In this document: one piece after another, positions 789 through 20,816 of the stretch
Layout of the letters: every line of letters starts with the position of its first letter
Numbering within the stretch: position 1 is the stretch's first letter
Assembly (NCBI RefSeq): GCF_024298765.1
Contig: NZ_CP101210.1
Strand: one strand, 5' to 3'
Length of the DNA: 64,000 nucleotides
DNA from: Escherichia coli
GTDB lineage: Bacteria; Pseudomonadota; Gammaproteobacteria; Enterobacterales; Enterobacteriaceae
Translations under genes and position numbers: made by a program
Notes under the pieces: generated by a model
The model's input: only the letters and a program-made list of their open reading frames with translations
Told to the model about the DNA's origin: nothing
Database searches by the model: none

Positions 789-796
789 CGCCGAAC

Positions 797-2431
797 TCAC
801 AGCATACCCTCCAGCTCATCCAGATCCGCCAGAATTTCTTTTTCCAAATCTTTTAAGCGCTTTAGTATCACCTTCGGATCTTCATATTCCTCCGCCTGAT
901 ACACCACTTCTTTATAACGATTGATAGAGAGATCGTATTTCTGCGCAGCAATATCCGCTTTCGGTACAACAAACGCCGCCTGCGTGCGATCTTTAAAATC
1001 AACGCCAGCATCAATCCCTTCCGGGTACTGCTGTTTAAGCAACGAGGCTAACTTCTCACCCATAAAGTTATCAACCGGTAGCCCGCGTAAAGTACGGTAA
1101 TGCTTCCAGCTTGCCAGCAGATGCGGCAGATCGTTGTCTTTTATCGGGTTGCGCTTATCATCCAGGCTGTAGCCATCATTTTGCAGATCGTAGAACCAGA
1201 CCTCATCCGTTTGACCGCCTTTGGTAAAGATCAGGATCGCCGTCGCCACGCCAGCGTAAGGTTTAAATACACCAGAAGGCAGATTGATCACCGCTTCCAG
1301 TTGGTTATCTTCCACCAGCGTTTTGCGAAGTGACTGGTGCGCCTTGCTGGAGCCAAACAGCACGCCCTGCGGCACGATAGTGGCACTGCGCCCGCCCACT
1401 TTCAGCATTTGCAGAATACGCGCCAGGAACAGCAGTTCGGTTTTTTTGGTTTTCACCATTGCCGACAACGTGGAGTCGATATCTTCCTCGTCCAGTGAAC
1501 CGGTAAAAGGCGGGTTCGCCAGAATCAGATTGAAAGCGTTTTTACTGGCCTGAGGGAAGTTAGTGCTGAAGCTCTGGCTCATGGTGTCCTGATAGTGAAT
1601 ATCCGGCGCTTCCACACCGTGCATAATCAGGTTCATAGCGGCGATACGCAGCATGGTGGTATCAAAATCGTAACCGTGGAACATATTGTTATCTACATGG
1701 TTACGCCACGGTGTCAGCAGATCGCCGGTAAAGATTTTTTGCTCTTCCAGTTCGCCACGTTCGTTGGTGCCAATCTCAGTATGGATGGATTCCAGCGAGC
1801 TGTACTTCTCCAGAAGATATTCATAGCTGGTTGCCAGAAAACCACCGGTGCCACAGGCGGGATCACAAATCGTCTCGCCGCGGGCCGGGTTCGGCTCCAT
1901 CATTTCAACCATCGTGCGGATAATGTGGCGCGGCGTGCGGAACTGACCGTTGATTCCGGCAGTGGTCAGCTTGCTTAACAGGTATTCGTAAAGGTCGCCT
2001 TTGGTGTCGCCACGATCCAGCGGCAGGTTTTTGATCACCTCAACCGCTTTGGTCAGTAATGACGGCTTAACAATCTCCAGACGAGCATCTTTCATAAAGT
2101 TGCCCAGCAGCGTCACCTTCGACGCATCGGCCTGGCCAAGCTGACGAAAATGCTGGAATACGCCATCGCGCACCACTTCCATCATCTCATCCGAGCCAAG
2201 ATTGCTATAGTGACTGAAACGGAACTCCTGCTGTTCTGGCGCAAAACGCGGTTTAAAATCAATTCCCGCGATTTGTTTACGCTTCTCGTCGCGTTGTTCC
2301 TGGGTATCCAGCATCCGGGAATACATCAGATAGGTGATCTGTTCGATTACGGTCAGCGGGTTGGTGATACCACCCACCCAGAAATCTTCCCACAGGCCGT
2401 CGATTTTACTTTTTAAGTCACCAGTGATCAT
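797..2431 (-). CDS. hsdM: Type I restriction-modification DNA methyltransferase subunit HsdM
   Basis: 544-aa ORF with ATG start; N6-adenine methyltransferase motifs ([10 protein letters not shown] AdoMet site, NPPF catalytic motif); gene order hsdR-hsdM-hsdS. Confidence 0.9.
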
Positions 2432-2449
2432 TGTTAGCGTTTATATCCT

Positions 2450-2483
2450 GTTTTAAATACAAAAGCCCCGCTGTCGGGGCTTG
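2450..2483 (-). terminator. Hairpin plus T-run between hsdR stop and hsdM start
   Basis: GCCCCG-CTGT-CGGGGC stem-loop (2465-2480) followed on the minus strand by a U-rich tract; lies in the 63-bp hsdR-hsdM gap. Confidence 0.35.
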
Positions 2484-2494
2484 TCATGTGCGTA

Positions 2495-5400
2495 TTATAC
2501 CGTCGCTGCGTCGGTCACAACACCCAGCTCTTCGACTATCTTTTGCAGGCGGGCGATCTGCTCTATATCCGGGAACACACCGGTAACGCCTTCGTTGTGG
2601 ATATGCGTAAAAGGCTGTTCAAAGAGCTGCCGCATTTCAATGGTGCCGTAATCGCGAATGTGGTTTTTCAGCAATGACAGGAAGCGCAGTTGTTGGCTGG
2701 TCAGACTGTTATCAGCGGCGAACTGAGCAAAGCGCACTTCCACCGCGTCGCTGTCCATCCCGATGATGGTACGCAAAAGTTTATCCAGGCTGGCAGTTGC
2801 CTGCGGATAGAACTCTTTCAGTGCCCGGATATCAACGTTGGGGTTCTGGATCAGCACCAGCTTCGCCAGCTCATCCAGCTCGTTTTGCGTGACTGGCTCA
2901 CCGTTGCGGATTTTCTTCAGCACCGGATTTTGCTGGAACAGCGGCTCCAACGCTCCCTGAACCTGCTGGCGATAGAGTTTGAAATCAATCGAGCGGATAT
3001 TAGTTTTGCGGGTCTCTGTCTGGATCAGGTTCGCATCTTCGGTAATATCTACCTGTATCGAACCAAATTTTGGCGTCGCGTCTTTTTCCATCAGGTGCAT
3101 GATGCCGCGCAGATGAATGCGGATATCTTCCAGCTCTTCCAGGCTGGCCTGCTTCCACCAGCCTAAATCACGAAGCTGATTGATCCGCGGTCCTTGCTGT
3201 TGGACCTGCGCCAAATGCGGCGGCAGGCGCTCCACTTTTTCGACGATGACCGGCCAGAGCACATCCAGCTCTTCCGGGTTGGTATAACGGGCAGTTTGCG
3301 CCGCCAGAATATCCATATCAAAGCGCATAGCGTCGCTTTGCCCGCGCACGTCCAGCCACTGCATCAGCGGGGCCAGGACAGATAGCAAATCCTGCTGTGT
3401 TTTCGGGGAAAGCTGGCGCAGCACTTTTTCATCGCTGTACTGCGCTTTTTGATGCCACTTTTCCTGGACGGCAATCGACTTTTCATCCAGTGCATTGATT
3501 TGCTCGCGTAGCTGGTGAGCAACTAAATCCACCGCCTGTTTGTCGAATTTACGTTGCGCAGCGGCCCCCAGCATAACCCACGCTTCGAAGCGTTTTTGTG
3601 CAAGCGATTTTGTCGCTGTGACTTCGGCCTCTTCGGTATGCAGTTCGTGATACTCAAAATTGCCCCAGTGATCGAAAATGCGGAATTTCTGTTTATCCAG
3701 AGGTTTGCCGTTATCGTCGTAACCGTACAACCCCGGACAGAGGCGCGTACCACGGCCAATCATCTGCCAGAACTTCACTTTTGATTTGACCGGTTTGGCA
3801 AAGACCAGATTCACAATTTCCGGGACATCAATACCGGTATCGAGCATGTCAACGGAGATAGCGATGGTCAGCTCTTTGTTGGTGCTTTCATCCAGCCCTT
3901 TAAAATCATCAATCAGTTGCTCGGCGCGGGGATCGTAATTGTCGATGACCTGGCAGAAGCGCCCGGCAAACTGCGGGTACATATCGTCGAATAATTCATT
4001 CAACAGCAGCGCGTGTTTGTGGTTACGGGCGAAAATGATGGTTTTACCTGGCAACTGGCCGTCCCGATCTTTCAGGCCATTTTCCATCAGGTTACGCAGG
4101 ATATAGCGGTTGGTGTCTTTGTTGTAGATCGCCTCATCCAGCGCCTTGCCATCAAACTCCAGCGTATTGGGATCTATGCCTTGTTCTTCCAGCTCGCGGA
4201 TTTGTGCGTCGCTTAATTTCTCCCGTTTGATGCCTTCGCGCAGGAATTCTGTGGTGTGCGTGACAACCTCATAGGGAACCAGATTGTTATCGGCGATGGC
4301 ATCTTCCAGGCTGTAGTTGGCGGTAGGAATACGTCCTTCACAACCAAACAGGCCGAAAGTGGTTTTACTCACCATGTCAATCGGCGTGGCCGTCAGGCCA
4401 ATCTGGAGGGCATCAAAATACTTAAACAGATCGCCGTAAACGTTGTAGATAGAGCGATGGGATTCATCGGCGATGATCAAATCGAAATAACCAACATCGA
4501 AATGGTCCATGATTTTCATCATACCAGGATAGGTGGCGATGTAGATCCTAGCATTCTGCCTGTCTGCTTTTTTCGATTTCCCGACCACATACAGCGGCTC
4601 ATTGGTGAATTGATTAAAGGCATTCGCCGCCTGTTTACGTAGTTCCTTGCGGTCGCAAAGAAACAGGACGCGTTTTACCCAGCGGGCATCAATCATCAGT
4701 TTGCTTAGCGCTATTGCCACGCGGGTTTTGCCTGTACCCGTAGCCTGAACAATTAGCGATTGCCGGTATTTGTTGGTAAACCGCTCGCTGACACGGGCAA
4801 TGGTTTCAAGCTGGTACAAACGTCCGGCAACGGCCTTACCTTCGTTATCTTTTACGTGCGGCACACTGTTCAGCGGAAGACGGGTTTCACGCTGTTGAAT
4901 AAGATATTGCAGGCTTTCCTTGCTGTAGAAGCCAAACACCCGACGCGGGGGATAACCATGAGTTTTATGGTCATCCCACAGCCAGATATCATAGCCGTTG
5001 GTGTAGAAGATGATCGGACGCTGGCCGTATTCTTTTTCCAGCCAGTCTGCATACAGCCGGGCCTGAATTCGTCCTTGCTCGGCATTGACGCTGGTTTTTT
5101 TTGCTTCCACCACCGCCAGCGGTTTGTGTGCCTCATCCCACAAGACATAGTCCGCATAACCGTCTCCGGTCGCGGTAGGTTGTTCTTTAACGGGATGTTC
5201 CTGCGTAACCTGATCGGTATTTTTAAGGCCTTCGCCTACATTCCAGTCAGCAGCAAGCAGGCGAGAGTCAATCAGGCGACGGCGGGTTTCCGCTTCATCA
5301 ATAGAGAGAATATCGGCAACATGCTGGTTACGCGCTCTGGCTTCATTCAGGCGTTGAGTGAGGTGTTCGGCCTTTTCCTGTTCTTGCTGTAGTGCGCGTT

Positions 5401-5911
5401 GCAGCGCCAGTTCGCGCTCACGGCTTTCATCCTGAGCCCTGATTGCATCTTCCAGACGTTTTTCATCTGCACGACCTGAAGATTGTGTTAATGGAGGGAG
5501 TGTAAATTTGGGGCAGTCATCAACATTACCGTGGGCGTAGCGAACATACAGCCAAATTCCCAACAAATACGCTTCTTTGAGCAGCCAGTAAGTATCTTTA
5601 GCTTTGATACGTCCGCCGTGCGCGGCACGGTTGCCATGGATACGCAGCGCATCCATTTTCATGATGATGGCTTCCGGCATCATGCTGGTAAAGACATCAG
5701 CATTCATTAAATCGTAAAGATTAGCCTTAATACCTTCCGGCAACCGCTCCTGACGATACAACCAGCGCACCATCAATTCGGTGTAGTTGCGCAGCTTGAC
5801 CAGACAGCTTTCCGGATCGGAGTGAACATAGCGTTCCGCCATACACGCGAGTTCAGCCAGTTCCGGCCACTGGCTGCGCAACATTTCAAAATTGAGAGAC
5901 TGCTCCATCAA
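2495..5911 (-). CDS. hsdR: Type I restriction enzyme endonuclease/helicase subunit HsdR
   Basis: 1138-aa ORF; N-terminus MMEQSLNFEML resembles EcoKI-type HsdR; PD-(D/E)xK-like segment (DYVLWDE...VVEAKK), Walker A QATGTGKT and DESH helicase motifs. First codon in track is TTG; ATG is the second codon (5908). Confidence 0.9.
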   Translation of the reverse strand: MMEQSLNFEMLRSQWPELAELACMAERYVHSDPESCLVKLRNYTELMVRWLYRQERLPEGIKANLYDLMNADVFTSMMPEAIIMKMDALRIHGNRAAHGGRIKAKDTYWLLKEAYLLGIWLYVRYAHGNVDDCPKFTLPPLTQSSGRADEKRLEDAIRAQDESRERELALQRALQQEQEKAEHLTQRLNEARARNQHVADILSIDEAETRRRLIDSRLLAADWNVGEGLKNTDQVTQEHPVKEQPTATGDGYADYVLWDEAHKPLAVVEAKKTSVNAEQGRIQARLYADWLEKEYGQRPIIFYTNGYDIWLWDDHKTHGYPPRRVFGFYSKESLQYLIQQRETRLPLNSVPHVKDNEGKAVAGRLYQLETIARVSERFTNKYRQSLIVQATGTGKTRVAIALSKLMIDARWVKRVLFLCDRKELRKQAANAFNQFTNEPLYVVGKSKKADRQNARIYIATYPGMMKIMDHFDVGYFDLIIADESHRSIYNVYGDLFKYFDALQIGLTATPIDMVSKTTFGLFGCEGRIPTANYSLEDAIADNNLVPYEVVTHTTEFLREGIKREKLSDAQIRELEEQGIDPNTLEFDGKALDEAIYNKDTNRYILRNLMENGLKDRDGQLPGKTIIFARNHKHALLLNELFDDMYPQFAGRFCQVIDNYDPRAEQLIDDFKGLDESTNKELTIAISVDMLDTGIDVPEIVNLVFAKPVKSKVKFWQMIGRGTRLCPGLYGYDDNGKPLDKQKFRIFDHWGNFEYHELHTEEAEVTATKSLAQKRFEAWVMLGAAAQRKFDKQAVDLVAHQLREQINALDEKSIAVQEKWHQKAQYSDEKVLRQLSPKTQQDLLSVLAPLMQWLDVRGQSDAMRFDMDILAAQTARYTNPEELDVLWPVIVEKVERLPPHLAQVQQQGPRINQLRDLGWWKQASLEELEDIRIHLRGIMHLMEKDATPKFGSIQVDITEDANLIQTETRKTNIRSIDFKLYRQQVQGALEPLFQQNPVLKKIRNGEPVTQNELDELAKLVLIQNPNVDIRALKEFYPQATASLDKLLRTIIGMDSDAVEVRFAQFAADNSLTSQQLRFLSLLKNHIRDYGTIEMRQLFEQPFTHIHNEGVTGVFPDIEQIARLQKIVEELGVVTDAATV

Positions 5912-6004
5912 TCATCGCCTTATGTCGTGGATACAACAGCATTTCTGGAAAGAATATCACACTAATTTGGCCGACGAAGTGAGCCGGAAAGGGCGGAATT
6001 ACCA

Positions 6005-6337
6005 TTAATTCTCATATTTAAAGTCGATGTTTATTTTGAGTGTTTCAATATTCACAGTGACTTCGCAACCATGCCAGAATGGCTTTTCTTGTGATTTAAA
6101 GTTATCCACAAACAAATTTCTTAGTTCCACCAAAAGATCTAAAAGTCTTTCACTGGCATCTGCGGTTTCAGTGATCCAATGTTGATTGCCCTGTTTATCT
6201 ACATAGTCATAAGTAAACTCACCACAGTCGCTTTCCGGTTCTAACTTTGCACACAGAATGATTTTGACTGCATCACTAGGAGTGATCGATAGCAACACCG
6301 AACCAATGTCATTATAAATATCCTGATCAGAACGCAT
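6005..6337 (-). CDS. Putative CdiI-type immunity protein for the adjacent CdiA-CT nuclease
   Basis: 110-aa ORF whose ATG (6337-6335) overlaps the TAA stop of the toxin ORF (TAATG coupling); small acidic protein, AT-rich; position typical of cdiI. Confidence 0.55.
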   Translation of the reverse strand: MRSDQDIYNDIGSVLLSITPSDAVKIILCAKLEPESDCGEFTYDYVDKQGNQHWITETADASERLLDLLVELRNLFVDNFKSQEKPFWHGCEVTVNIETLKINIDFKYEN

Positions 6338-9300
6338 TATTTACCTCCGGGTGCATTGTTAAATACTTTTTCAATCGGGCGACCTCCATCTATCGAATAT
6401 ACTACTTTAAATTTAGCAGGTCTGACACTATCCCCAATATACGATGGCTGAATGTTGACCTTAACCTCTTTTCCTTCACCCAATGCTTTTGCCCAAGTAT
6501 TTTCCATCTGCTTCCAGGCTCCTTTGTTCAGATTTCCATCCATTGGAACAAGGTTCAATTTTTCACCAGGACCATTAAAAATACTGGCTATTAAATGACC
6601 ACCCTCATCTCCATCAAGGCCACACTTACCTGCTTTACATTGTTGATAGCCATTTCTATCCTTTACATTAGGACTAAGAGTTGCTTCAACCTGGCTTGGC
6701 CTTGCCTGAGCATCAGTTTTATAAATTTTATCACCATCTACATGATAAACTTTATTCGGCTGTGGGTTATTTAGCTCTTTGCTCCAGTTCCCTTTACCAC
6801 CTGAGTCTAGCATCAGCTTTTCAAGTGACTCCGCACTGATTTTCTGACCTGTCTGTTTTTCAACAGCCATTAGAGCCTTCAACTCTGACAACTCGCTGGC
6901 AGACATTTTACCAACCGCCGCTACTGTCAGGCCCGCTGGAAGAGCATCGCCAGCGACCATTTCCGCAACCCAGATACTAACTTCATTTGCACACAGCACA
7001 GTATTCGCACCACAGGCACTGACTGCTGCCTGGGCGGCTGCAATTGCTTCCGGAGTCAGAGCAATCACTACCCCACCTGTAGCCCCCCCAACAAGCGCTG
7101 CTGCAATCGCTTTGTTTACAGCCTCACCGCGTTTACATTCAGCCCCGCCAGGGTTAGTCGAGCAGGACGCAATATCTTTGCCATGCTCCTGCACGAACTT
7201 GGTCTGAGTGTCTTCATTACCACCCAGCAGGTTATTCTCAACAACATTCTTCCCAGCAGCAGCTCCGGTAGCCACACCCGCAGTATTCCCACCTGCAACA
7301 CCACCCGCCATACCTGCTGAGATACTCGCCAGCGTACTTAGCGTCTGCTTCTGGTCCTCGGTCAGCTTCGACAGGTCTTTCTCATCCGGATATAAAACCT
7401 TCGCGATTGCACCTGCGATAAGTTCACCGCTCACCGCACCGACTGAACCTGCTGCGGCATTATTTCCCTGAAGAGCCGCAGTCACACCGCCGAGAATGGC
7501 ATGAGCAATGGCTTTCGCTGCATCGTTATCATTAATTCCAGCATTGTGCCCTATGAAGTTTGCCAGTTCCGGTGCAGAAGCTCCGGCCAGAGCACCCGCT
7601 AAATTCCCCCCAGCCAGTCCCTGAAGCGCGGCTGTCGCGGCCTGGATACCCCGCTGCATATCGCTACCGGTACCATACTTTTCCTGTTCCTTTTTGTATT
7701 CCGGCGTATCACGCAGTTTTGCCAGATATGCCTGCCGCTGTTCTTCCGTCGTATCCGCCGGAACAGGCCCATATTTATCCTGCGCAGCCTTCAACGCATT
7801 CAGTTCACCCTGCGTCCGCGCGATATCCGCCACCTGACTGCCTATGTCACTGATAAGCCCCACTGTCTGCAGACGCCTCTGCTCTTTCTCCTTGTCAAAT
7901 ATCGGGCTGATACTGTCGTTGGCGTGTTCCGGGTCACGGCTCAGGTTCGCCAGATTCTGCTTCTGATTGTCCCTGTCCCGGATGGTGATAGTGCCTTCTG
8001 CCACTGCGGCCTGAGTCGTTCCTTCCGCATGTCCGCTGTGACCTCCGGCGGATATCATGCCACCCGGCATGTTACCCTGAAATTTATCCCCGAAGCTGCC
8101 ACCACCGCTCAGACTGATTCCACTGTGACTGACTTTATAATCCGCTTCGTTGTGAAGGTCACTGAACCCCAGCGTTCCGGTATCCAGGTGGTTTTTATCC
8201 GGTGTGGCAGTGGAGGCAATCACCGCACCATCCAGTTGGGTATGTTTACCCACTGTGATGTCGAAGCCGCCGTCACCGGCAAACATTCCGGTTTGTTCAG
8301 CAACGGAGTCAAAGCGGCTCTTCATCTTATCCCGGGAGGCAGCGATGTAACCTGAGCCGGTCATGGAGCCAAAGGTAAAACTGCCGCCGGCAGCCACGCT
8401 GGTCTGTTTACTGTCGTACTTACTGGTGTCCTGCTGGCTGCTTATCAGCAGGTCGTGGCCCACATCGGCGATAATCCTGTTGCCGTTGACCTGAGCACCG
8501 TTCAGTACCGTATCCCGACCACTGTTGATGGTGACGGTTTTACCGCTGTCTATTGTGGTTTCAGTCCACTCAGTACCGTTACCTTTCTCGCTGCCTTTTG
8601 CCGCATTAACGCTGGCAAAGACACTGATACCGGCACCGTTACCACCGGCACCGATACTGACACCCACGCCACCGCCACTGCTGCTGTTCCTGCCCGTTGT
8701 TTTTTGTGTGTTTGCCGCGCCACTCAACAGAACATCATTCGCAGCATCCAGGTTTGTGTTACCACCGGCCTTAAGCTGGCTTCCGGCAATCACAATATCT
8801 CCGCGGTTATCGCCCCTGTTTTTACCGGTTGCGACAACAGACAGATTATTCCCGGCATTCAGCGTACTGCCGGATACTGTGTCACTTTCAGAATGTTGTT
8901 GTGATTTCGATTTCTGGGTGGTGAGCGACAGGCTGACTCCCATCGCATTCGGGTCACCGGTTGCGGAGGCCATTGCCGCAGCCTGTCCGGCCTGCACACC
9001 AGACAGCGCTGTCTTTGTAGCCTGCAGGGTTTTCAGACGGCTGTCACTGCTCTCCTTCGTCTCCTGTGCACTGGTGACCGCATTATTGATGGCACTGCCC
9101 ACTGTGCCGGAAAGGGCAACCGTCAGCCCGCTTTTCTTCTGCTCAAATTTTTCGTCCACAGTACGACGGTCATGCCCCGGGTCAACCACCACACTGTCAC
9201 CGGTAATGCTGATATCCCGGTTCGCAATCACATCCGAACCGCTGATATGAGCCTGTTTGCCCGCGGTAATACTGACATTACCGGCAGTGGAGCCGATGGT

Positions 9301-9801
9301 ACTGGCACTCTGACTCTGCGTTGTCCCGGCCTCGCGGCGGTCGTGCGTTGTCTTACTGCTGCCAATGGTGAAGCCAATACCGCCGGTACCCATCAGACCG
9401 GATTTCTTCGTTTCCTTAAAGCGCCAGGACGTATCTGTACTGGTGGCAGCAAGAACATCAACATGGTTACCCGCCGCCAGTGACACATCCCGGTCAGCCA
9501 CCACATCCGAACCCTCTACCGTCAGGTTATCACCGGCGTTAACGGTCACGCGGTTCCCCGACAGCAGGGAGCCTGCTTCACGGGAGGCACTGTTCTCACT
9601 GATGGTGTGGGTGGTTTTCTTACTGAGAAAACCTCCGCTTTTTTTCTTCGTTTCCAGATAGTGATAGTCACTTTCTGTCGCCGTGGTCAGGGCGACATCA
9701 CGACCGGCATTCACACTGATATTGCCGGTTGCGGTAACGGATGACGCAACAGCGGTGATACGCATACTGAAGAGCATTCCGTATAAAGATTCAGCTGGCA
9801 A
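6337..9801 (-). CDS. cdiA: 5'-truncated CdiA (contact-dependent inhibition toxin) fragment: FHA-repeat region, pretoxin-VENN, C-terminal nuclease toxin domain
   Basis: Gly/Ser/Thr-rich filamentous-haemagglutinin-type repeats; [16 protein letters not shown]...AGKNVVENN pretoxin-VENN motif (VENN codons at 7231-7242); 297-aa CT with GHLIAS...[14 protein letters not shown] resembling the Serratia nuclease / Endonuclease_NS active-site region. No signal peptide or TPS domain; frame opens at a stop with TTG as first codon, no cdiB nearby. Confidence 0.8.
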
Positions 9802-10032
9802 AACTTTATCAGTCCATAAAAATCAACGGAAGCGCAGATGGTTCACACGTCCATTACCAACTGATTGTTGTCACAACCGGTAACACAAAGTACTGAACGA
9901 CTGTTTTTAACAGCGGTGTTGCGTCATCCACCACCGTGAAACAACGCTGTGCAGGGAATCGTCCGCATCCCCATAACGGTCAAACATCGTGGCGTTGACA
10001 GAATGACCGACGAAAAGCCAGAAAGCGCTGAT

Positions 10033-10581
10033 TCACTGAGCTGTAATCAATGTACAGCGCTGTACCGGACGATGGGTAATGGCGGTCACAACCGGTAACC
10101 CCAGAGACAATGCGACTGTTTTTAACGCAACATACTGACCGGATGTATCACCCCGGGCAACCCGAAAACACCTTTCCACCCGGCATTGTCCGCCAGCACT
10201 TATCACCTGCCAGCTATGTTGCAGTAAATCCACCACTTGCGAACATTGTTCATCAACTGTGACACAGGCTCGCGGGTGACAAATACTCGTCTGGCTGAGC
10301 AGCAACAGGCATCGAATTGTTGCTCCTCCATGTTGTTCCCGCAACCAGCGTAATACCACCGACGATGATGGACTGGCAGTGTGATTGCTCTCAGTAATAC
10401 GTTCATGCAGTTGTCGATAAAAGGAAGTACAGAATGCATGAATCTGTTGCCCGTTGATATTTCCTTCTGCCGAATGGAGTGTGAAGTAAAATGCCAGCAA
10501 ATGCGGCCAGTGGTCCACCGCCTGCTGAACAAAACGCCGGATGTCTCCCGGCTCTGAAATTAAGGCTTCGGTTATTTGCAC
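10033..10581 (-). CDS. Hypothetical protein (possible remnant at the cdiA truncation junction)
   Basis: 182-aa ORF with overlapping alternative frame; no recognisable motifs; low coding confidence. Confidence 0.2.
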   Translation of the reverse strand: MQITEALISEPGDIRRFVQQAVDHWPHLLAFYFTLHSAEGNINGQQIHAFCTSFYRQLHERITESNHTASPSSSVVLRWLREQHGGATIRCLLLLSQTSICHPRACVTVDEQCSQVVDLLQHSWQVISAGGQCRVERCFRVARGDTSGQYVALKTVALSLGLPVVTAITHRPVQRCTLITAQ

Positions 10582-11026
10582 GAAATGTTCCTTTTCAAAC
10601 CCTGTTGGATTTTGTCAAGACGGTACAGACACAGTAAAGCGCGCATCAACACCTGAAAGGTACGATACAAACACAAGTTACAAACAATAAGAACGGAAGG
10701 ACAATTAATCAGTGAGGAATAATAACTAAATTAACCAAAAGAATGTTACTGACAATACCACCAATACTTAAATAGCAATATATTAATTAATGTAAGAACA
10801 GATGCCCGGTAAGACATATACACAATACATCCACAAACACACTCTTTTCATTAAATAAATCACCTGATTAAACCATGAAAGTGTGATGTAAGTCAAAATT
10901 ACTGACACAATCAATTGATAATGATTATCTCTATCATTATCGTGAAATTCGAGAATGAAAGGAGAAGTAGTCATTATAAGTCTTTTATAAATCGTCATCA
11001 TCATAGTAAAGTAGAACACTTTTTAT

Positions 11027-11485
11027 ATGAGTTACTATATGAAAATATACTGGACAAGAAAAAACATTCCTGAACTTTCAGCACTTCCACCTTCATTAAG
11101 AAAGAAAAATTTTACTGACGCATATAATGCTGCATCTTCCCATATCGAATACTGGATAGGTGCTGGCGTCTCATTTATCTCGATGATGATTTTATTCAAA
11201 GTATATGACTTTCTTTTACCCGCCCAAGATACTTTCCCGGGTGATATCATAAGAAGTTTATGTGTTGTGTGTCCATCCATATTAATCTGGTTTCAGTTTT
11301 CGGTATATGTCATGAGGAAATATTACAGACATATTCTGGAACGAGGTAAGGAAACCGAAACCATTTCAGAAAGGTTGATACGTGAGGCTGATACACGAGA
11401 ATATGAATTATGGCGTCCGGCCCATCGCTTTTTCTCCATTATTCTATTAGTTTGCATTCATTCACTGATAACAACTATAAAATAA
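11027..11485 (+). CDS. Hypothetical small membrane protein (microcin-locus accessory)
   Basis: 152-aa ORF with ATG start, two or more hydrophobic segments; AT-rich, adjacent to the CPBP gene and microcin genes. Confidence 0.4.
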   Translation: MSYYMKIYWTRKNIPELSALPPSLRKKNFTDAYNAASSHIEYWIGAGVSFISMMILFKVYDFLLPAQDTFPGDIIRSLCVVCPSILIWFQFSVYVMRKYYRHILERGKETETISERLIREADTREYELWRPAHRFFSIILLVCIHSLITTIK

Positions 11486-11584
11486 AAGTTATGGCTGTTC
11501 TGATACAGGAAAATAAACGTTCATTCTATGGTTACCTCTTCCTGTTATATAAAAGAATTTTAAACAACAAGTAAGGGAATATAA

Positions 11585-12271
11585 ATGGAAATAACAAAAA
11601 ATAAAAATGCAACTATAAAAAAACAGTCATCAGCCGGCTGCTTTTCAATGTTTACTTTATCATTTTCCATTACCTTTATTCCTGCATTTCTTACAAACAG
11701 GCAGGAACTTATATCCAGGGGGCTTCTTGTTCCAGCATTATTTCTTGCTGAATTTCTAATTCTTGTTCCACTGTATTTTATTTTCTTCCGAAAAAGAGAA
11801 GGATTAGGAAGAGGTTCTTTTCGACTGGATGTTTTTTTTACTCTTTTCTCTTTAATAATGATTATTCAGTTATTTGTCCCTTATCTGCTGGCAGTGAGGA
11901 AAACGGAAGAATGGATGATCTCGCAAATGTCTTTTTCCGGGGCCATTTTATGGATTAATATATTTTCTTCCGTACTTCTTGTTCCTGTATATGAAGAGAT
12001 TGTATTTCGAGGGTGTCTTTTTAACTCTTTTAAATTCTGGTTTAATGACAATATTTACATCTCTGCTATTGTAACATCAGTCATATTTTCTGCATTACAT
12101 CTACAATATACTGACTTTCGTACATTTTTGATGCTCTTTCTGATATCGTTAGTTCTTATCAGTGCAAAAATAAAGTCGAATGGCCTGTTAATGCCCATAT
12201 TACTTCACATGGCGATGAATGCAGTCATAACAGGAATACAATATACGTTACAATATCACATAACAGTCTGA
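11585..12271 (+). CDS. CPBP-family (CAAX protease / Abi) intramembrane metalloprotease-like protein, putative bacteriocin self-immunity
   Basis: 228-aa polytopic membrane protein with family motifs EEIVFRG, FSALHL and LLHMAMN; ATG preceded by AAGGGAA Shine-Dalgarno. Confidence 0.75.
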   Translation: MEITKNKNATIKKQSSAGCFSMFTLSFSITFIPAFLTNRQELISRGLLVPALFLAEFLILVPLYFIFFRKREGLGRGSFRLDVFFTLFSLIMIIQLFVPYLLAVRKTEEWMISQMSFSGAILWINIFSSVLLVPVYEEIVFRGCLFNSFKFWFNDNIYISAIVTSVIFSALHLQYTDFRTFLMLFLISLVLISAKIKSNGLLMPILLHMAMNAVITGIQYTLQYHITV

Positions 12272-12695
12272 AATTGTTATTATGAGATATCTATAACACC
12301 TGAAGTTGGAAAAAGAAGCAAATAATTCCTTATAAGGAATCGTTTACTAATATATTTAGATGATCTCATATTTGTTTATGATATACATCTGATTAAGATA
12401 TAATGGATTATAAATTACTCAAAGGTGAACAAATATCTTCGCCTTTTCTCGTAGAAAGAGACTTGAAACTTATAATACATCTATATAAACGTGATTTAAA
12501 TCACGATTTGCAGTAAAAGCAATTGGTATAATTCATTGGTATTACTATTATTTCATCTATTGCACGAACTATTTTACAACAATAAAAAAGATATACAAAC
12601 AGCAAGAAGTAAAAATATTCGGATAAATAAAAATTTTTGCTACCTTGGTTTCTATAGTCTTTATTTCTAAGTTTTTCATAAGCACTCAAAGACTC

Positions 12696-12881
12696 ATGTA
12701 TAGGGACGGTTTAATAATGAAACTATTTTTTTATTTCTCGTTGTTCTTTATAATACAACTTATAAATTCAGACTTAGACACATTAACCCTTTATCTTTTC
12801 ATAAAGAAAATAATTCTTTCGTTACTTGCGAGTGTACTGTTTTTATTTGTTTTATCTTTCTTTAATAAAAAGAGGAAATAA
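12696..12881 (+). CDS. Putative microcin immunity protein (small hydrophobic membrane peptide)
   Basis: Hydrophobic ORF ending 1 nt before the microcin-like ATG; the track starts it at a TTG (12645); in-frame ATGs at 12696 and 12717; resembles MchI/McmI-class immunity peptides in size and position. Confidence 0.5.
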   Translation: MYRDGLIMKLFFYFSLFFIIQLINSDLDTLTLYLFIKKIILSLLASVLFLFVLSFFNKKRK

Positions 12882-12882
12882 C

Positions 12883-13206
12883 ATGAGAAATATAACAACC
12901 GATGAACTTGCTTTAATACATGGTGCAGGATTAGATAAAGATGCATCCGTTGCAATAGGTACTGCGGCTGGTGGTTTTTTAGGTAAAGCAACAAAAATCC
13001 CTGGTGCGGATATAGCAGGAAGTGCAATTGGAGGATATATTGGAGGAGTTATTGCTGATGGTTCAAATAGGACAATAACAATACCATCAAACGGTATTAA
13101 CTATAATCCGGGTATAGGACTTGGAAGTTTTAATCCAAACTACAATGGAGGTTTATTAAACTCAGGATTTAACTCATCAACATCCTCTTCTAGTAGTGGA
13201 AGTTGA
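12883..13206 (+). CDS. Class IIb (siderophore-type) microcin-like precursor, not assignable to a named microcin
   Basis: 107-aa ORF; leader MRNITTDELALIHGA|G of double-glycine type; Gly/Ala/Ile-rich core; C-terminal Ser-rich tail SSTSSSSSGS as in salmochelin-modified microcins; AAGAGG Shine-Dalgarno overlaps the upstream stop; convergent on mchF. Confidence 0.7.
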   Translation: MRNITTDELALIHGAGLDKDASVAIGTAAGGFLGKATKIPGADIAGSAIGGYIGGVIADGSNRTITIPSNGINYNPGIGLGSFNPNYNGGLLNSGFNSSTSSSSSGS

Positions 13207-13215
13207 TTAATTTCT

Positions 13216-13253
13216 AAAGCAGCATAGCTTATTATGCAGCAATGCTGCTTTTA
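13216..13253 (+). terminator. Rho-independent terminator after the microcin-like gene
   Basis: AAGCAGCAT...ATGCTGCTT inverted repeat followed by TTTT, 10 bp after the stop. Confidence 0.45.
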
Positions 13254-13266
13254 GTGATATATTATC

Positions 13267-15369
13267 CTAATTTGTAATTCTAAAAATCCGATCAACTGTT
13301 CTTAAAGTTGTCTCTCTATGTGCAATAATCACCCGGGTGATATTCATCTTTTTTATAGCAGCATTCACGAAACGTTCACTTTCTGTATCAAGAGAACTTG
13401 TAGCCTCATCCATAAATAATATTCCAGGTTTCCGGTATAAAGCTCGGGCAATGAATATACGCTGTTTTTGACCGCCGGAAAGACCTTCCCCCAGTTCACC
13501 TATTAACGTTTCATACCCCATTGGCATTTTCATTATCACATCATGAATATGACTTGCTCTGGCACATTCTGTCATCCATTCGTCGTCTGTTTCTTCTGCA
13601 AACCCACAGATATTTTCACGAATTGATCCTGAAAATAGCCGGTCGTCCTGCATAACACAGGCTATCATACGGTGATAATTATTTATTCCAAGTTGACGTA
13701 TATCCGTGCCATTAACCAGTACTTTTCCACTATCTGGTTCAAACAGTCCACATAATACTTTCATTAATGTGGTTTTTCCGGCACCGGAGGCACCAGTTAT
13801 AGCCACACTTTCTCCCGGAGCCACAGACAAATTCAGACCACTGAATACCTGTGCTGACTGGCTGTCATACCGGTAGCTTAAATCAGTGGTTTCCAGTGAA
13901 ACCGGGCTCATGTCAGCAACGATTTCAATTTCCGGTTTCTTTTCTTCCTTTTCATGTAGTGCAATATCTGCAATGCGCTCATTATGCAGACTCATTATTC
14001 TCAGTTGAAGAAGAAAACTGGTCAGCGAAGCAACCCGATCCGAAAACTGCCCACGAAAAGAACCAAATGCCACAAACATCCCTATTGTCATCTGATTATC
14101 GATCACAAGGCTTGCACCCAGCCATAAAATCGCCACCTGATCACAGGCGGCAACAAAAGTATTTATCCCCCCGAAGAGCAAATCCATCCTGGTTAACTTA
14201 ATACCTGAATTGATCGCATCTATTTTCAGGTTAAGCCAGTGTGTTCCCCGAATCCCAGCCATACCCTGGATTTTTACCGTGGCAATACCATACAGGCTTT
14301 CCATAAAATAGGAGCTGGCCCGGGCCCCCCTGACAAGAGTTTCTTCCGATATTTGCCGGTAATAGCCGTATGTCACCAGACGAATAAGAACGTAAACCAT
14401 GGTAAAACCGAGCACTATCCAGGTAAGATATCCTCCATATAACAGCATCATCACAAAAACACCCACAACCATAATACTGTCCATGATTGCCCCAACAACA
14501 CAGGTGGTAAAGGTGGCCCTCAAAGTGTCAAGGGAGCCAAAACGCGACTGGATATCACCTAATTTACGGCGTTCAAAAAACGCCAGCGGCAGTCTGAGAA
14601 GATGGTTAAACAGACCCGACTGCCACTGTATATTGATGAGCGTGCTCATAACCAGTGAGGACCATGCACGCAGCATACTCACCGCGGCCCTGAGCAATAT
14701 AAAGAACATCAGGCCAGCAGAAATAAGCGTCAGCAGCCCTCTGTCCCCCGCCGGAATCGCATGATCCATAACCAGCTGAGTTCCCACCGGCATTACCAGA
14801 TTGATTGCTTCAATTACAACTGACAGACAGAAAATTTTCGCCAGTGTTCTTTTAATACCGTAAATACTGTTAATCAGTGAACGGAGACTTATGCGGGTCT
14901 GCTGGGTTTCCGCCAGGAATTCACTTCCGGGCCAGACCTCAAGTGCAATGCCCGTAAAATACCGGCTCATTTCCTCCCGACCGAGATATCTTCTGCCTCT
15001 GGCCGGATCATGCAGTACATAACGGTTACGCTTTACGCTGACCAGCACGACGAAGTGACTGAAATCCCAGTGGAGAATACACGGCATTTTGAGGGCACCA
15101 AGTTCATCCAGCTCCAGTGAAAGAGCCCGGGTGACCATCCCCAGCTGCTCCGCTATTCCATTGATTCCTGCAAGGTTTGCTCCACGGGCCGAGAGATTAA
15201 ACTTCCGGCGAAGAGATATCAGGTCAATATTCTTACCAAAATGACCGCATATCATTGCCAGGCAGGCCAGTCCACATTCAGCGGTCTCCGTCTGATGAAT
15301 AACCGGAACACGACGTCGCCAGCGCATATCAAGCTGATTTATAATTTGTCTGAAATTCCCGTTAGTCAT
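13267..15369 (-). CDS. mchF: Microcin ABC exporter with N-terminal C39 peptidase domain (CvaB/MchF family)
   Basis: C39 peptidase motif [15 protein letters not shown], six TM segments, Walker [13 protein letters not shown] signature LSGGQKQR. Track start 15387 is GTG; ATG at 15369 gives [10 protein letters not shown]. Confidence 0.9.
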
Positions 15370-16636
15370 TGAGCGGTCCTGTTGCACTGTGTTTCATGTC
15401 ATAGAAAGGAGAAAGCATCCACTGGTAAATACGCCTTTTTTCCAGAAATAGTGTACTTTCGGCTTTCATTCCATTTTCCAGAGGGAGGTATTTTTCGTCA
15501 TATCTGATAATCTGCTTTTCAGGCATCGCAATGACTTTATACCAGGGAACAGAGTCGCCCGGCGTATTCTGTGGTGCTCCCTTATAGGTCAACATTTCCT
15601 GTGTTGACGCAGGAGTCCTGGATATAGTTTTAACCGTAGCAGAGAACTGCCCAAATTTTTCTGCCGGAAAGGCTTCATAACGAATATTCACTTTGTCACC
15701 AGCCGAAATATAAGGAACAGCATCATTCGGGACCCAGAGAATAAGATAATAGTTTTCAATGTTCTCAGGAATAACCTGCAGAAGGCTGTCTCCGGTATTG
15801 ACCATTTGCCCGACAGTGACACTCAAGGAGTCAACTTTCCCGTCAGTCAACGCCCGGATAATGATTTCGCCCTCCACATCAGTGTTAACCAGTTCTTTCT
15901 GTAACTCATACCGTTGCAGTTCCATCTGGTAGATACGGTTATCAAAATCTGCAGCCTGAGTCTGAATCTGACTCTCCAGAGTGGTTATCTGCAGGGCATT
16001 CTGTTCGTTCTGTCCGCTCAGGCTGAGAAGATTGTTTTGTTGCTGATAATATAATGCCACCTGGTTAGTTAACTGATCTTTATTAATCAGCCCTTTTGCC
16101 TGATAGTTTCTGTAATTCTCCATATTGTTTTTCATTATTTTTATCCCTTCCTCTGCACGCTGTATAATATCTGATGAGCGACGAAACGCATCTGTGTATT
16201 GCAGGCGTTGTTTTTCCAGGGTATCTAGCGTTATTTTTTTACTTTCTTCCAGACGGGAAATAATGTTGTCCACACGAACCAACTGGTTTTCTATATCCCG
16301 ACGATGATTATCAGTGACAATACCACTACGTGTACTTTTACTGATGTCAATCAGATAAACAGGATCCCCTTTTTTTATCAACTGTCCTTCATGAACAAAC
16401 TGCCTGACAACAAATCCCTGTACACCTGAATATATATTGACAGCTCTTGGCCAGGTTGTGACCTCACCACTGACATTAACACGGCGGCTATAGGTACCAA
16501 CAATAATGAACATCAGAAATGCCGTAATAAACACTATGCTTCCCAGCATGATTAACCATAGTGGTATTCCGGGAAGTAATATTGCCCGTCCCTGCCACTT
16601 CATTTTTCTGTTTTCTAAAGCATCCTGACGAAACAA
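15362..16636 (-). CDS. mchE: Microcin secretion membrane-fusion protein (CvaA/MchE, HlyD family)
   Basis: 424-aa [30 protein letters not shown]..., single N-terminal TM plus coiled-coil; overlaps mchF start by 8 bp; first codon is TTG. Confidence 0.9.
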
Positions 16637-16788
16637 AATAGCTCCTCTTACTCACACTTTTCCTGTAATACCTTCACTGGTTAACCGAAATGCTATAATC
16701 AAAGCCAGAAAATATAGAGTCCTGTTAAAATAGTATCAGCGATGCATTTACCCCGTAATTTACAATTATCTCTGTATCTTCAGAGGTA

Positions 16789-17241
16789 CTACGTTTTATG
16801 CAGCCGCTCAGGGATGTATGTCACAATTTTCTTTCGCCTGCTTAACCATCGTACTTCTCCTTCTCCCCATGGCTGAAGCTGTATGAGATAGTCAATAACT
16901 TTTCGACCAAAGCCTGGTTTACAACAGAAATCCAGAATCCAAATCCTTCCATCTTCATTCCATTCAGACGGATGCAACCTGAATTCTGGATCCCTGAGCA
17001 GGCGCGCTTCTGTATCAGCCTCAAGATATGCCCAGGTAATATACGCCAGTGGAAAACCTCGTGAATCAAACAGGAATTTAATCTGATTATGCTGTATCGC
17101 ATATTCAGTCCAGTATTGAATGGTTAACACCGGATACAGACTGTAATTACGATTGTAGAGCATACAACTGACCGCAAAACCGATCTGTTCATAAACAGTC
17201 CATTCATCTTTTCCTCTGATGTTTTCCCTTATATAAGACAT
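16789..17241 (-). CDS. mchD: Microcin maturation protein MchD (MceI-like, HlyC-type acyltransferase family)
   Basis: 150-aa ORF with ATG start directly downstream of mchC; HlyC/toxin-activating acyltransferase-like sequence. Confidence 0.75.
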   Translation of the reverse strand: MSYIRENIRGKDEWTVYEQIGFAVSCMLYNRNYSLYPVLTIQYWTEYAIQHNQIKFLFDSRGFPLAYITWAYLEADTEARLLRDPEFRLHPSEWNEDGRIWILDFCCKPGFGRKVIDYLIQLQPWGEGEVRWLSRRKKIVTYIPERLHKT

Positions 17242-17266
17242 GATTACTATTTCCCTTATATATTTT

Positions 17267-18817
17267 TTACACTGTGTTTCTTATCGGTTCAAGATATCCA
17301 AATGCATCTCTGGAAAACTTAAGCATAAAATTTTTCATATCAGAAATTGCTTCTTGTAAAAAAAGGGGATCATCGCCATGATTATCCAGCAGGATGGCAA
17401 TTTTTTCGCACATATTCTCTTTCCTCAGCTCTTCCCTGGGTTGCAGCCTTTTCATGGTATGATGTTCAATTTCTTTCAGGAGTAATGAGGCATTTATCTG
17501 ACGTCTGGTACTGCCTTGCGTCAGCCAGTGGATGGCCTGGGAAAAACACTGTTGTGCAACGGTGAAATAAACATCATTCTTGATGCTACTATTCAGTGCC
17601 TGCTTTTGATTATGCCTATGATGGATTAGCGTCACAACCAACTTTTGCAATGGTGAACCATCCTGATTGACAATATCTTGGGCATGTGATTTCTCGCAGT
17701 ATTGATTGAGTAATGCAACAAAACTGTTAACCAGTTCTTTCAATATATCAGGTATCTCTTTTTGTGTTATAAATTCTCCAGGAATACCCAACAGTTCTAG
17801 ATAACAGTAATAACATGCTTCATGAAAAGTTTTCTGAAATATCTCCTCAACCTTCAAACGGGCTGCAAGAGTGAAGTCAGGGTCAAACATATATTTTCCG
17901 ATATACAAGCAGAGATCAGACAGCCCTTGCATAAGTACCATCGGTTCTTTTGCCAGTTCAGCTAATCTTAGTTTATACCCAAAATCAGCTGGGGAATCTC
18001 CCGGAAACAGACAACTGAGTCCGCTAAAATCCATTAATCTGCCATCCATTGCAATATTAGAAGGAGAAGTTGTCAATCTCAGGAAACGTGTTCGACAAAA
18101 TGCCATTTGCCAGGCCTCACGACGTGCCAGTTCACATAACCCCTCAATGCAATAAATCCGGGGATCAGTTCGTGCTTCAGCATCAATTTCTTCCGGTGGT
18201 ACAGGTAGATATCCTGGCAGCTTGTGGATCACAGATCTAACCCGACAGGCATCGTGAATTAACAGACTGGAATACTCCGGTTTTACTTGGAAGTAAGGTG
18301 CCCGTTCAAAATGCGCCGGACGAACAACAGGCTCACGTACCAACAGGGCTCTTCGTGATTTCCTACCGGAGCGCTCAAATGCCTTTTCAGTATAGAGATC
18401 TGTAAGTAAAACCGCCCGAACCCGCACAGCACTATAAGGTAATATTTGAGCCAGTACTTCTCCCCACAAAGCCTCATATATTGCATGAACAGCGCCGAGT
18501 GCACCATTAGAATGACGTTCGTCAGTACCTTCGCCAACCAACGGATTACTTCCTATTCCTTTAACCTGGTAGTTACCATCAAACCCACAACGTGCACCAC
18601 CTCCATTACGCTGAATACCACTGCCACCATAGCGCTCTGCATGGAACACTTTGGCAGAAGCTGTACTGCCAGGATCGATAATATAACTGCAGGCATTTTG
18701 CAGCTCGTCTGGATTTCTGACATCCTCTGCACACCAGATTAATGAGGCCTTGATCTGCCTGGCAGTGAAAGGCACCAGGTTTTCATTCAGTTCAGAAAGT
18801 GAACACTGATGACTCAT
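17267..18817 (-). CDS. mchC: Microcin maturation protein MchC (MceJ-like)
   Basis: 516-aa ORF with ATG start, immediately downstream of mchB in the mchIBCDEF order. Confidence 0.8.
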   Translation of the reverse strand: MSHQCSLSELNENLVPFTARQIKASLIWCAEDVRNPDELQNACSYIIDPGSTASAKVFHAERYGGSGIQRNGGGARCGFDGNYQVKGIGSNPLVGEGTDERHSNGALGAVHAIYEALWGEVLAQILPYSAVRVRAVLLTDLYTEKAFERSGRKSRRALLVREPVVRPAHFERAPYFQVKPEYSSLLIHDACRVRSVIHKLPGYLPVPPEEIDAEARTDPRIYCIEGLCELARREAWQMAFCRTRFLRLTTSPSNIAMDGRLMDFSGLSCLFPGDSPADFGYKLRLAELAKEPMVLMQGLSDLCLYIGKYMFDPDFTLAARLKVEEIFQKTFHEACYYCYLELLGIPGEFITQKEIPDILKELVNSFVALLNQYCEKSHAQDIVNQDGSPLQKLVVTLIHHRHNQKQALNSSIKNDVYFTVAQQCFSQAIHWLTQGSTRRQINASLLLKEIEHHTMKRLQPREELRKENMCEKIAILLDNHGDDPLFLQEAISDMKNFMLKFSRDAFGYLEPIRNTV

Positions 18818-19088
18818 CTGGCAGTATTCTCCGTTTCAATTTTCATAAAAGAGTGTTCATAAAAGAGCAAGTAAGTGTCCTGACAGCTTCTTCCTTATTA
18901 CAGTAAAACTCTATTAATTACACATAAATTAAAAAATTATTTATCAACGACTGTAAATCATATCTTCATCAGTAAAGTGTTGAACATAAAAACACACTTA
19001 TAAATGGATCTTCTATCTGTTTTAAACAAAAAGGATATATTTTACAGGTACTACCGAAAAAGTGCCTGTAAAATAAATAAAAATATAA

Positions 19089-19316
19089 TTAGCTACCGCC
19101 ACCAGCAGAAGAACTGGCACTACCACTTCCCACGGTCGAGCCAATTGCTGTTGTCAAACCGGCAGATACGGCTCCAACTACAACCCCAAGTGGACCACCA
19201 GGTATTCCGGCGAGAGCTCCAACAATAGCTGCAGCACCTGCAGCATTAGCTGAAGTCGCTGGCGCACCTCCCGCCCCGGAAATATATCTTAACTGTGATT
19301 CTGTTATTTCTGGCAT
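19089..19316 (-). CDS. mchB: Microcin H47 precursor
   Basis: 75-aa ORF MPEITESQLRYISGAGGAPATSANAAGAAAIVGALAGIPGG...GSGSASSSAGGGS: double-glycine leader, Ala/Gly-rich core and Ser-rich tail matching MccH47 as I recall it (recalled residue 2 is R, here P). Confidence 0.9.
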   Translation of the reverse strand: MPEITESQLRYISGAGGAPATSANAAGAAAIVGALAGIPGGPLGVVVGAVSAGLTTAIGSTVGSGSASSSAGGGS

Positions 19317-19343
19317 ATAAACTGCATATAAACTCCATCATAT

Positions 19344-19553
19344 TTAACTTCCGTTTTTCCAGTCTGACCAGACCAGAATCCTTCGAATCCCATGAATCAG
19401 CTCAATAAAACCAAGAAATATTATAAAGCTTAGAAAAACGTCAACATAAGAATTCCCTTCGCCAACAATCCGAAGGGATGAAAGTGAAACCAATAAGATA
19501 GTAATAGGTAAACTGAATATAGCCGTCAATTGGGACAGTTTTTTATAACTCAT
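19344..19553 (-). CDS. mchI: Microcin H47 immunity protein
   Basis: 69-aa hydrophobic two-TM peptide immediately upstream of mchB; ATG start. Confidence 0.85.
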   Translation of the reverse strand: MSYKKLSQLTAIFSLPITILLVSLSSLRIVGEGNSYVDVFLSFIIFLGFIELIHGIRRILVWSDWKNGS

Positions 19554-19964
19554 TAATCCCTACCTGTTGCTTTATTTTCATTATGAAAAGTTACCAAATC
19601 TTAGCACCTCAGTCAGGAGAGTCAGGTCATCGATAAAGAATATTCCAGTAGAGTGGCGCTCATGATCAAAGATAACAGCAAAGTTGATGACAGTGCTGAC
19701 CGACTGTCATTTACAGAAACCCTGTTTGTAGCAAATTCCATCTTACCTGACCTCACCCAGACAAAGACAAAAGAGAATGATTGTTATTTACTTTTCAAAA
19801 AAAGTGTCATATTGTCCATATAAAGTCAAGAGGTATTTTACGTTATGTCACTGATGCAATTGTTAGTCAGGATCTCATGGTTGTCGCTCATGTATAACCT
19901 GAGACTTGAACGCACACTAATAGCGCTGACGGTCATACATCGGGAAATGTGAGGAGGCATAAGA

Positions 19965-20210
19965 ATGAATTGTGATAATAATCACAGAAATGAAGAATTC
20001 ATTGTTACCTTTGATAAAGGCAACAAGCAAGACAATTCAAGACGAAAACACGATAATTTTCCTATAGAGGTAGAATCCTCCGTAGAGCAGGAGACACACT
20101 GTATCACAAATAATAAGTCAGCTTCCGGTATAGTAACACATGACTATGATGCCGATTATATTTGTGGTTGTGGTGAAATTATGTGTCCTGGTTGCGGTCA
20201 TGACCTATAA
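19965..20210 (+). CDS. mchS4: Small Cys-rich protein, mchS4-like
   Basis: 81-aa ORF with strong GAGGAGG Shine-Dalgarno 8 nt upstream; C-terminal CGCGEIMCPGCGH cluster; position matches mchS4 in the H47 locus order as I recall it. Confidence 0.5.
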   Translation: MNCDNNHRNEEFIVTFDKGNKQDNSRRKHDNFPIEVESSVEQETHCITNNKSASGIVTHDYDADYICGCGEIMCPGCGHDL

Positions 20211-20365
20211 CAAACATTTTTGCAAACTGATACCTGATCAGGTACAAGCCTGTTGATTATTATGCTGAATATTTCATGTTATAAAACCATCGATATAAAC
20301 ATTAACAAGAAAAAACATATATTGTTTATCTGAACATTTATCGATGGAAAACCAAAGGGGAAAGT

Positions 20366-20800: not shown

Positions 20801-20816
20801 GCAGGAGGTTTTTAAA

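Follow-up and report, generated by a model that had tools for sequence, protein, structure and literature searches.

The region under study is very probably the scar of a single recent, lineage-specific deletion of 9,384 bp in a genomic island that carries the microcin H47 and cdi genes, a reading that rests on comparison of its sequence with intact islands. The window, by which we mean the whole 64-kb stretch of Escherichia coli DNA that was analyzed, has lost with this deletion the whole of cdiB, codons 1-2095 of cdiA, a 77-aa gene, and an ECs1377-family gene except for two of its codons; the features that remain around the scar are listed in Table 1. The event is a simple in-place deletion. 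It took the exporter gene together with the first two-thirds of the toxin gene, and the ORF adjacent to the scar is a common island gene unrelated to the toxin system, which makes this an instance of ordinary gene decay. RefSeq had already flagged the truncation, labeling the cdiA remnant as a pseudogene missing its N-terminus, and only the exact reconstruction of the event is new.

Table 1. Features at and around the deletion scar, in window coordinates
Feature	Position	Strand	Basis
cdiI immunity gene, 110 aa, YezG-like, intact	6005..6337	-	Pfam PF04634, E 3.5e-6
cdiA 3′ remnant, codons 2096-3234 and stop	6337..9760	-	tblastn: CdiA 2096-3234 on window 9759-6340
In-frame fusion ORF, 1,142 aa	6337..9765	-	Frame arithmetic and translation
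Deletion junction	9759..9760		Base-by-base comparison with N21
ECs1377-family remnant ATGCG	9761..9765	-	Start of the N21/MEI2A-0323 CDS; ATG at 9765..9763
Island backbone spacer from the 182-aa gene to the ATG of the ECs1377-family gene, forming the leader of the latter	9766..10032	-	99.97% collinear with N21
182-aa gene, Pfam PF27752 (UCP030791), island backbone	10033..10581	-	Precomputed Pfam, PGAP

Intact relatives and the deletion junction

A megablast search with window positions 9600-10800 returned a full-length match in ACN002 alone, one of the 5,426 complete RefSeq E. coli genomes searched, and a further 16 genomes matched at 99.8-99.9% identity starting only at position 9755. Strain N21 carries the same island, with 100% identity over window 1-9760 and 99.97% over window 9755-30908. 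On the minus strand of N21, MEI2A-0323 and other genomes the genes follow in the order 182-aa gene (WP_021527185.1), ECs1377-family gene (207 aa), 77-aa gene, cdiB, cdiA and cdiI, with a DEAD-box helicase/type I restriction-modification (R-M) cluster 3′ of cdiI; the ancestral island had this same arrangement, running from the UCP030791 182-aa gene through a cdiA of 3,234 codons to the type I R-M genes. The intact cdiA of the relatives indeed has 3,234 codons, its product carries a TPS domain at residues 36-288, the CdiB of the intact loci has POTRA and ShlB domains, and the parental 207-aa ECs1377-family protein matches NCBIfam NF052300 (E 3.7e-94). At least 12 genomes have an intact cdiA whose 3′ end matches the 3,424 bp of cdiA in the window at 100% identity, and intact loci with the same cdiA-CT/cdiI pair occupy the same position in N21, GPEC1031, FDAARGOS_1287 and others.

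The comparison with N21 places the crossover within a shared TA dinucleotide, since the left parental sequence matches the window through position 9760 and the right one from position 9759; alignment with MEI2A-0323 gave the same breakpoints. The segment absent from the window corresponds to about 4,451,150-4,460,531 in the N21 chromosome record. The wider context of the junction is an imperfect match, GTGATA against GTGTA (five of six positions). Local alignment of the 150 bp on each side of the two breakpoints reached a score of 12, where shuffled sequence averaged 11.3; this is no more than chance and rules out homologous recombination as the cause of the deletion. No IS element was found at the junction. 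The event is an illegitimate, microhomology-type deletion. The recombination fused the ECs1377-family gene at codon 2/3 with cdiA at codon 2095/2096, with only TA in common at the crossover, and the deletion extends upstream from cdiA across the whole of cdiB to the backbone genes of the island. An earlier, sequence-only reading of this DNA had suggested that the breakpoint might record a recombination event and had put the loss from cdiA at about 2,000 N-terminal codons; it was right on both counts, the comparison with intact CdiA giving exactly 2,095 codons and the event being the illegitimate deletion described here.

The missing sequence was also sought elsewhere. The deleted 9.4 kb gave no BLASTN match in the whole window, CdiB and the 5′ part of CdiA were absent from all 64 kb by tblastn, and ACN002 has a single cdiA-like place, with no second one. 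An intact ECs1377-family gene matching NF052300 is likewise missing from the window, where only its first 5-7 nt remain. We found no evidence that contradicts the deletion itself.

The 61-mer spanning the junction is identical in five records, namely ACN002, GCA_037165025.1 and the Logan runs ERR13369800, ERR14748681 and SRR27033076, and the presence of the same junction in five independent records indicates that the deletion is real. It could be objected that the junction occurs in only one of the 5,426 complete RefSeq genomes and that cdiA contains internal repeats, so that 9.4 kb might have been collapsed by misassembly of ACN002. However, three of the five records with the identical junction are independently assembled sequencing runs, and no repeat that could cause a collapse is common to both breakpoints; we therefore give an assembly artefact virtually no credence. 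Over 4-9 kb the carriers of the junction show 0-1 mismatch and so are near-identical, and the deletion is carried by a small, nearly clonal lineage.

The two states could also be read in the opposite direction, with the short form as the ancestral one and the 9.4 kb of the other strains as a later insertion. Nothing specific supports this order, although a two-state comparison alone cannot in principle decide between the two directions. The short form, however, holds two gene fragments, the 5 nt of the ECs1377-family gene and a cdiA without its secretion signal, whereas complete ECs1377-family and 77-aa genes adjoin the 182-aa gene in islands that have no cdi genes, for example in E. coli 042. 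An insertion would moreover need to rebuild two complete genes precisely. An ancestral short form is hardly credible on these grounds, and we retain the deletion as the direction of change.

The cdiA remnant, its fusion ORF and the immunity gene

Pfam searches assigned to the cdiA remnant a part of the FHA-2 repeats (hemagglutinin repeats), a PT-VENN domain (ORF residues 811-860) and an Endonuclease_NS_2 toxin domain (residues 1015-1139). As called, the ORF spans 6337..9801 (minus strand) and has 1,154 codons from a TTG. The sequence-only reading had let the cdiA frame open immediately after a stop at about 9802; the truncation it described stands and its coordinates need only small corrections, in that the in-frame stop above the large ORF is the TGA at 9825..9823 and 9801 is merely the first alternative start. 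The DNA derived from cdiA stops at 9760 (9758 if the shared TA is counted to the other side), 41 nt inside the called ORF. Positions 9761-9801 come from the mostly deleted ECs1377-family gene: 9761-9765 are its first 5 nt, and the 36 nt of 9766-9801 are its leader and not cdiA.

The deletion has joined the two genes in frame. The resulting fusion ORF begins with the ATG CGT (Met-Arg) of the ECs1377-family gene, continues with ATC ACC GCT, which encodes Ile2096-Thr-Ala of CdiA, and runs on to residue 3234; it has neither a signal peptide nor a TPS domain. Public records contain the exact 1,142-aa fusion protein as ALY15804.1, with 12 contigs encoding it, and this version, which starts at the ATG at 9765, is the only one present in the public protein collection, from which the TTG-start and first-ATG versions are absent. 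The Shine-Dalgarno sequence before this ATG is weak. A consensus scan detected no minus-strand promoter, with promoter and terminator counts at the level of shuffled sequence, and an Rfam scan of 9400-11200 at E<=1 gave no match.

Comparison of the remnant with MEI2A-0323 revealed an uneven distribution of differences: 123 of the 300 mismatches over 9 kb cluster in window 7500-8250, a 750-bp stretch of minus-strand cdiA just upstream of PT-VENN, throughout which N21 is 100% identical to the window. From its sequence, this stretch appears to be an allelic recombination patch in the FHA-2/pre-toxin region of cdiA between near-identical islands.

In the published architecture of CdiA, the receptor-binding region and the beginning of the FHA-2 repeats both lie before residue 2096. 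Of the components of a functional CDI system, the window retains FHA repeats, PT-VENN, a polymorphic CT toxin and a cognate cdiI, as identified by Pfam, and has neither cdiB nor a CdiA signal peptide and TPS domain. With the CdiB transporter and the signal peptide and TPS domain of CdiA lost, the remnant is unable to reach the cell surface, and we infer from the known needs of two-partner secretion that contact-dependent inhibition by this system is abolished in the ACN002 lineage. The fusion product, if translated, would stay in the cytoplasm. CdiI itself is 100% identical to WP_001255836.1, which is encoded 3′ of the intact cdiA in N21 and MEI2A-0323. By analogy with orphan cdiI genes, which are expressed in EC93 (PMC3150448), the retained cdiI probably still protects the cell from neighbors carrying the same toxin. 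The ACN002 lineage is therefore best described as CDI-negative and probably immune to this toxin.

A more active role for the remnant can be envisaged, in which the fusion is made from the signals of the ECs1377-family gene and acts as a cytoplasmic nuclease checked by CdiI, the two forming an addiction (toxin-antitoxin-like) pair that stabilizes the island in a cell immune to its CDI+ kin. Such a functional allele would be consistent with a junction that is in frame and supplies an ATG, with an intact cdiI that overlaps the stop codon of the toxin ORF, and with the persistence of the allele in about 12 public contigs. However, one in three junctions is expected to be in frame by chance, the translation signals are weak and the consensus scan detected no promoter, and the near-identity of the carriers is more in keeping with a single young clone than with long maintenance. 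Furthermore, IS insertions have inactivated this cdiA in other strains. We consider a functional allele improbable, and ordinary decay of the toxin gene is the reading that we prefer.

The same cdiA has been broken by ISEc13 in strain Rb-23 (L015 11001-22564) and by IS421 in strain N10 (L016 11001-22060), each in an independent event. Both insertions are of IS4-family elements, at different positions, and both loci have kept cdiB and cdiI. Loss of this CDI weapon is thus a recurrent and ordinary occurrence.

The 182-aa gene and the surrounding island

The ORF at the other side of the scar starts with GTG, with AAGGA in front, and had been described from its sequence as belonging to no recognizable family. 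The ORF itself is confirmed, and the lack of a family holds only for the local copies of Pfam (E<=10), NCBIfam and PHROGs, which gave no match and predate PF27752; precomputed matches assign to PF27752 both the identical 182-aa product (L010 and L011) and 120 of the 120 listed homologues, and PGAP names the identical protein WP_021527185.1 a ‘UCP030791 family putative phage-derived protein’. The gene is present in 2,789 of the 5,426 complete E. coli genomes (51%), mostly without cdi nearby, at 4,120 places in all, with up to five copies per genome and nearly always as an annotated CDS. Six copies compared pairwise gave dN/dS values of 0.14-0.47, with dS up to 0.43, and on this substitution pattern the 182-aa ORF is a real conserved gene under purifying selection. 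The UCP030791 family is narrow, comprising 49 representatives at 50% clustering among 1.84 billion proteins, and its alignment shows the conserved motifs DH(Y/W)PR, PS-P-LLRW, R-LLL and HPR.

In other islands the gene stands in a fixed string that runs from an inovirus-Gp2/YagK-YfjJ gene through a 191-aa gene and an AlpA-like HTH gene to the 182-aa gene and then either an ECs1377-family ‘DNA-binding’ gene or a ProQ/FinO-family pseudogene. The same neighborhood occurs without cdi genes in E. coli 042, AR Bank #0349, O157:H7 TB21-1, 83972 and SCU-115. The 182-aa gene is accordingly part of the island backbone and lies outside the cdi system. Fragments of cdi genes, which the sequence-only reading had thought might persist upstream of the truncation, were not recovered: tblastn of CdiA and CdiB against 9761-10700 gave only noise at E<=10, and the spacer between the 182-aa gene and the scar had no match to either protein even at that threshold. 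Over 9761-10600 there is no cdi-derived DNA and the 182-aa ORF is a conserved gene of another family, which is the outcome that this reading had itself named as speaking against its proposal.

A 42-nt direct repeat was observed at window 9870-9911 and 10085-10126, the two copies being 79% identical and 215 nt apart; the first falls in the spacer downstream of the 182-aa gene, the second inside that gene, at its 3′ end. The spacer also contains a weak echo of residues 131-169 of the 182-aa protein (41% identity over 39 aa, E 0.002 by tblastn). Judged by its sequence, the repeat resembles the product of a partial duplication at the gene's 3′ end, and such a duplication may explain why members of the family end at either about 170 or 182 aa. 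Within the gene, a 109-aa ORF overlaps in another frame (window 10203-10532, minus strand), and the database protein P0136 looks as if a frameshift had joined this frame to the genuine 182-aa frame; the 109-aa ORF is probably not a gene.

The AlphaFold model of the 182-aa protein (pLDDT 81.5, pTM 0.79) was compared with viral models using Foldseek, which retrieved parvovirus NS1 and microvirus replication initiators at E values of 1e-4 to 1e-2. Alignment by hhalign of the 182-aa family with an island-encoded inovirus Gp2 family protein gave a probability of 72% and E 3.4e-5 over ~85 residues. In this alignment the HYH (HUH) triplet of Gp2 sits opposite T88-I89-R90 of the 182-aa protein, of which only R90 is conserved in the family, and the central strand of the protein carries no HUH-type histidine pair. 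The 182-aa ORF did not match PF11726 even at E<=10, and its distant relative P0147 scored 19.7 bits (E 8.8e-4) against a cutoff of 25.8. No relation to the 188-aa YagK/YfjJ-domain protein of the island was found by hhalign, and a PDB profile search with the UCP030791 family alignment returned nothing meaningful.

The protein shares with the YagK/YfjJ and inovirus Gp2 proteins (PF11726; Rep ORF2/G2P-like) a niche, that of the P4-type integrase island backbone and the same operon-like string; its predicted fold appears to be Rep/HUH-like, and some database entries call UCP030791 members ‘inovirus Gp2 family protein’. In contrast to the Gp2 protein (243 aa), it is shorter, has no HYH and forms its own class, PF27752/UCP030791. 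The structural model and the remote alignment suggest, with low confidence, that the 182-aa protein may be a diverged protein of Rep fold from which the metal-binding histidines of the HUH motif have been lost; with equally low confidence, its role in the island would be a non-catalytic one in DNA binding or regulation rather than that of a nuclease. The boldest combination of these ideas is that the fusion and CdiI form an expressed cytoplasmic nuclease/CdiI addiction module that stabilizes the microcin island in a host that is an immune non-producer and, separately, that the UCP030791 protein is a catalytically dead derivative of an HUH-fold Rep that regulates island biology in half of E. 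coli; we regard it as distinctly unlikely. The UCP030791 family, which is found in about half of E. coli genomes, may merit a study of its own, for which the window offers no special handle.

Several features of the wider island were noted in passing. The microcin H47 cluster is cargo between the AlpA-like HTH gene and the 182-aa gene, at about 10600-30900 in the window and at 6118-20876 in the N21 locus (L004). In O157:H7 TB21-1 the same place (L007 5919-9782) is IS1-interrupted and holds only remnants, namely a 152-aa gene, fragments of a CPBP protease and of an alpha/beta-hydrolase, and a glycosyltransferase. Adjoining mchF (13267-15387, minus strand) in the window is a Gly/Ser-rich ORF of 107 aa (12883-13206, plus strand). 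Its start, MRNITTDELALIHGAG, resembles a leader of the double-glycine type, and its serine-rich tail (SSTSSSSSGS) is like that of the siderophore (class IIb) microcins. The ORF had no match in NCBIfam and appears in RefSeq only as a hypothetical protein (WP_001390454.1); its sequence suggests that it may be an uncharacterised microcin precursor. On the other side, the type I R-M region 3′ of cdiI (window 797-5000) shows scattered mismatches to locus L003, at about 1-7% per 250-bp bin, and the annotated HsdS proteins differ among N21, MEI2A-0323, Rb-23 and N10, the islands being otherwise syntenic.

Comparison with known CDI loci

[quoted passage not shown] 2011, PMC3150448). The window resembles these modules in that a 5′-truncated cdiA fragment with the PT-VENN and toxin (CT) domains is followed by its cognate immunity gene, here a YezG-like ORF directly downstream, and in both cases the immunity gene is probably still valuable. 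This likeness could mean that the arrival of a new CT module pushed the tip out of the main cdiA, to be retained in silent form beside a functional cdiBAI as a reserve, and a displacement of the toxin tip by recombination had also been proposed in the sequence-only reading. However, cdiB and full-length cdiA are absent from the window and from the rest of ACN002, where the single cdiA-like place is the one described here, which rules out an orphan module within an array. Nor is the tip a displaced one: in N21 and at least 11 other genomes, GPEC1031 and FDAARGOS_1287 among them, this CT/cdiI pair occupies the same position at 100% identity as the native tip of an intact cdiA. Furthermore, 796 codons 5′ of PT-VENN have been kept, and on the upstream side the break falls in a backbone gene of the island, beyond the cdi locus. 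Synteny with N21 thus refutes an orphan origin, to which we attach very little probability.

The remnant accordingly differs from the orphan modules (PMC3150448) in that it is neither downstream of a cdiBAI cluster nor displaced, is much longer (1,139 CdiA codons), arose from an upstream deletion and gained its start codon by fusion. The distinction matters mainly for annotation, as the ‘cdiA’ found here is a dead remnant that should be scored neither as a CDI system nor as an orphan array.

The closest known systems are the intact cdiBAI loci of E. coli N21, GPEC1031, FDAARGOS_1287 and CH4793, in which a CdiA of 3,234 aa (WP_052870112.1) with an Endonuclease_NS_2 CT is paired with a YezG-like CdiI. 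The window shares with them the island, the 3,424 bp of cdiA 3′ sequence (100%), CdiI, the 182-aa gene and both flanks, and differs from them by the 9,384 bp that comprise cdiB, cdiA codons 1-2095, the 77-aa gene and codons 3-207 of the ECs1377-family gene. The IS-disrupted cdiA genes of Rb-23 and N10 resemble the window in that the same allele family was inactivated independently and cdiI survived, but these two strains keep cdiB and both halves of cdiA, whereas in the window the 5′ part of cdiA is physically absent. Taken together, the exact reconstruction of the deletion and the two IS disruptions show the ease with which a CDI weapon is lost in E. coli while its immunity gene is kept.
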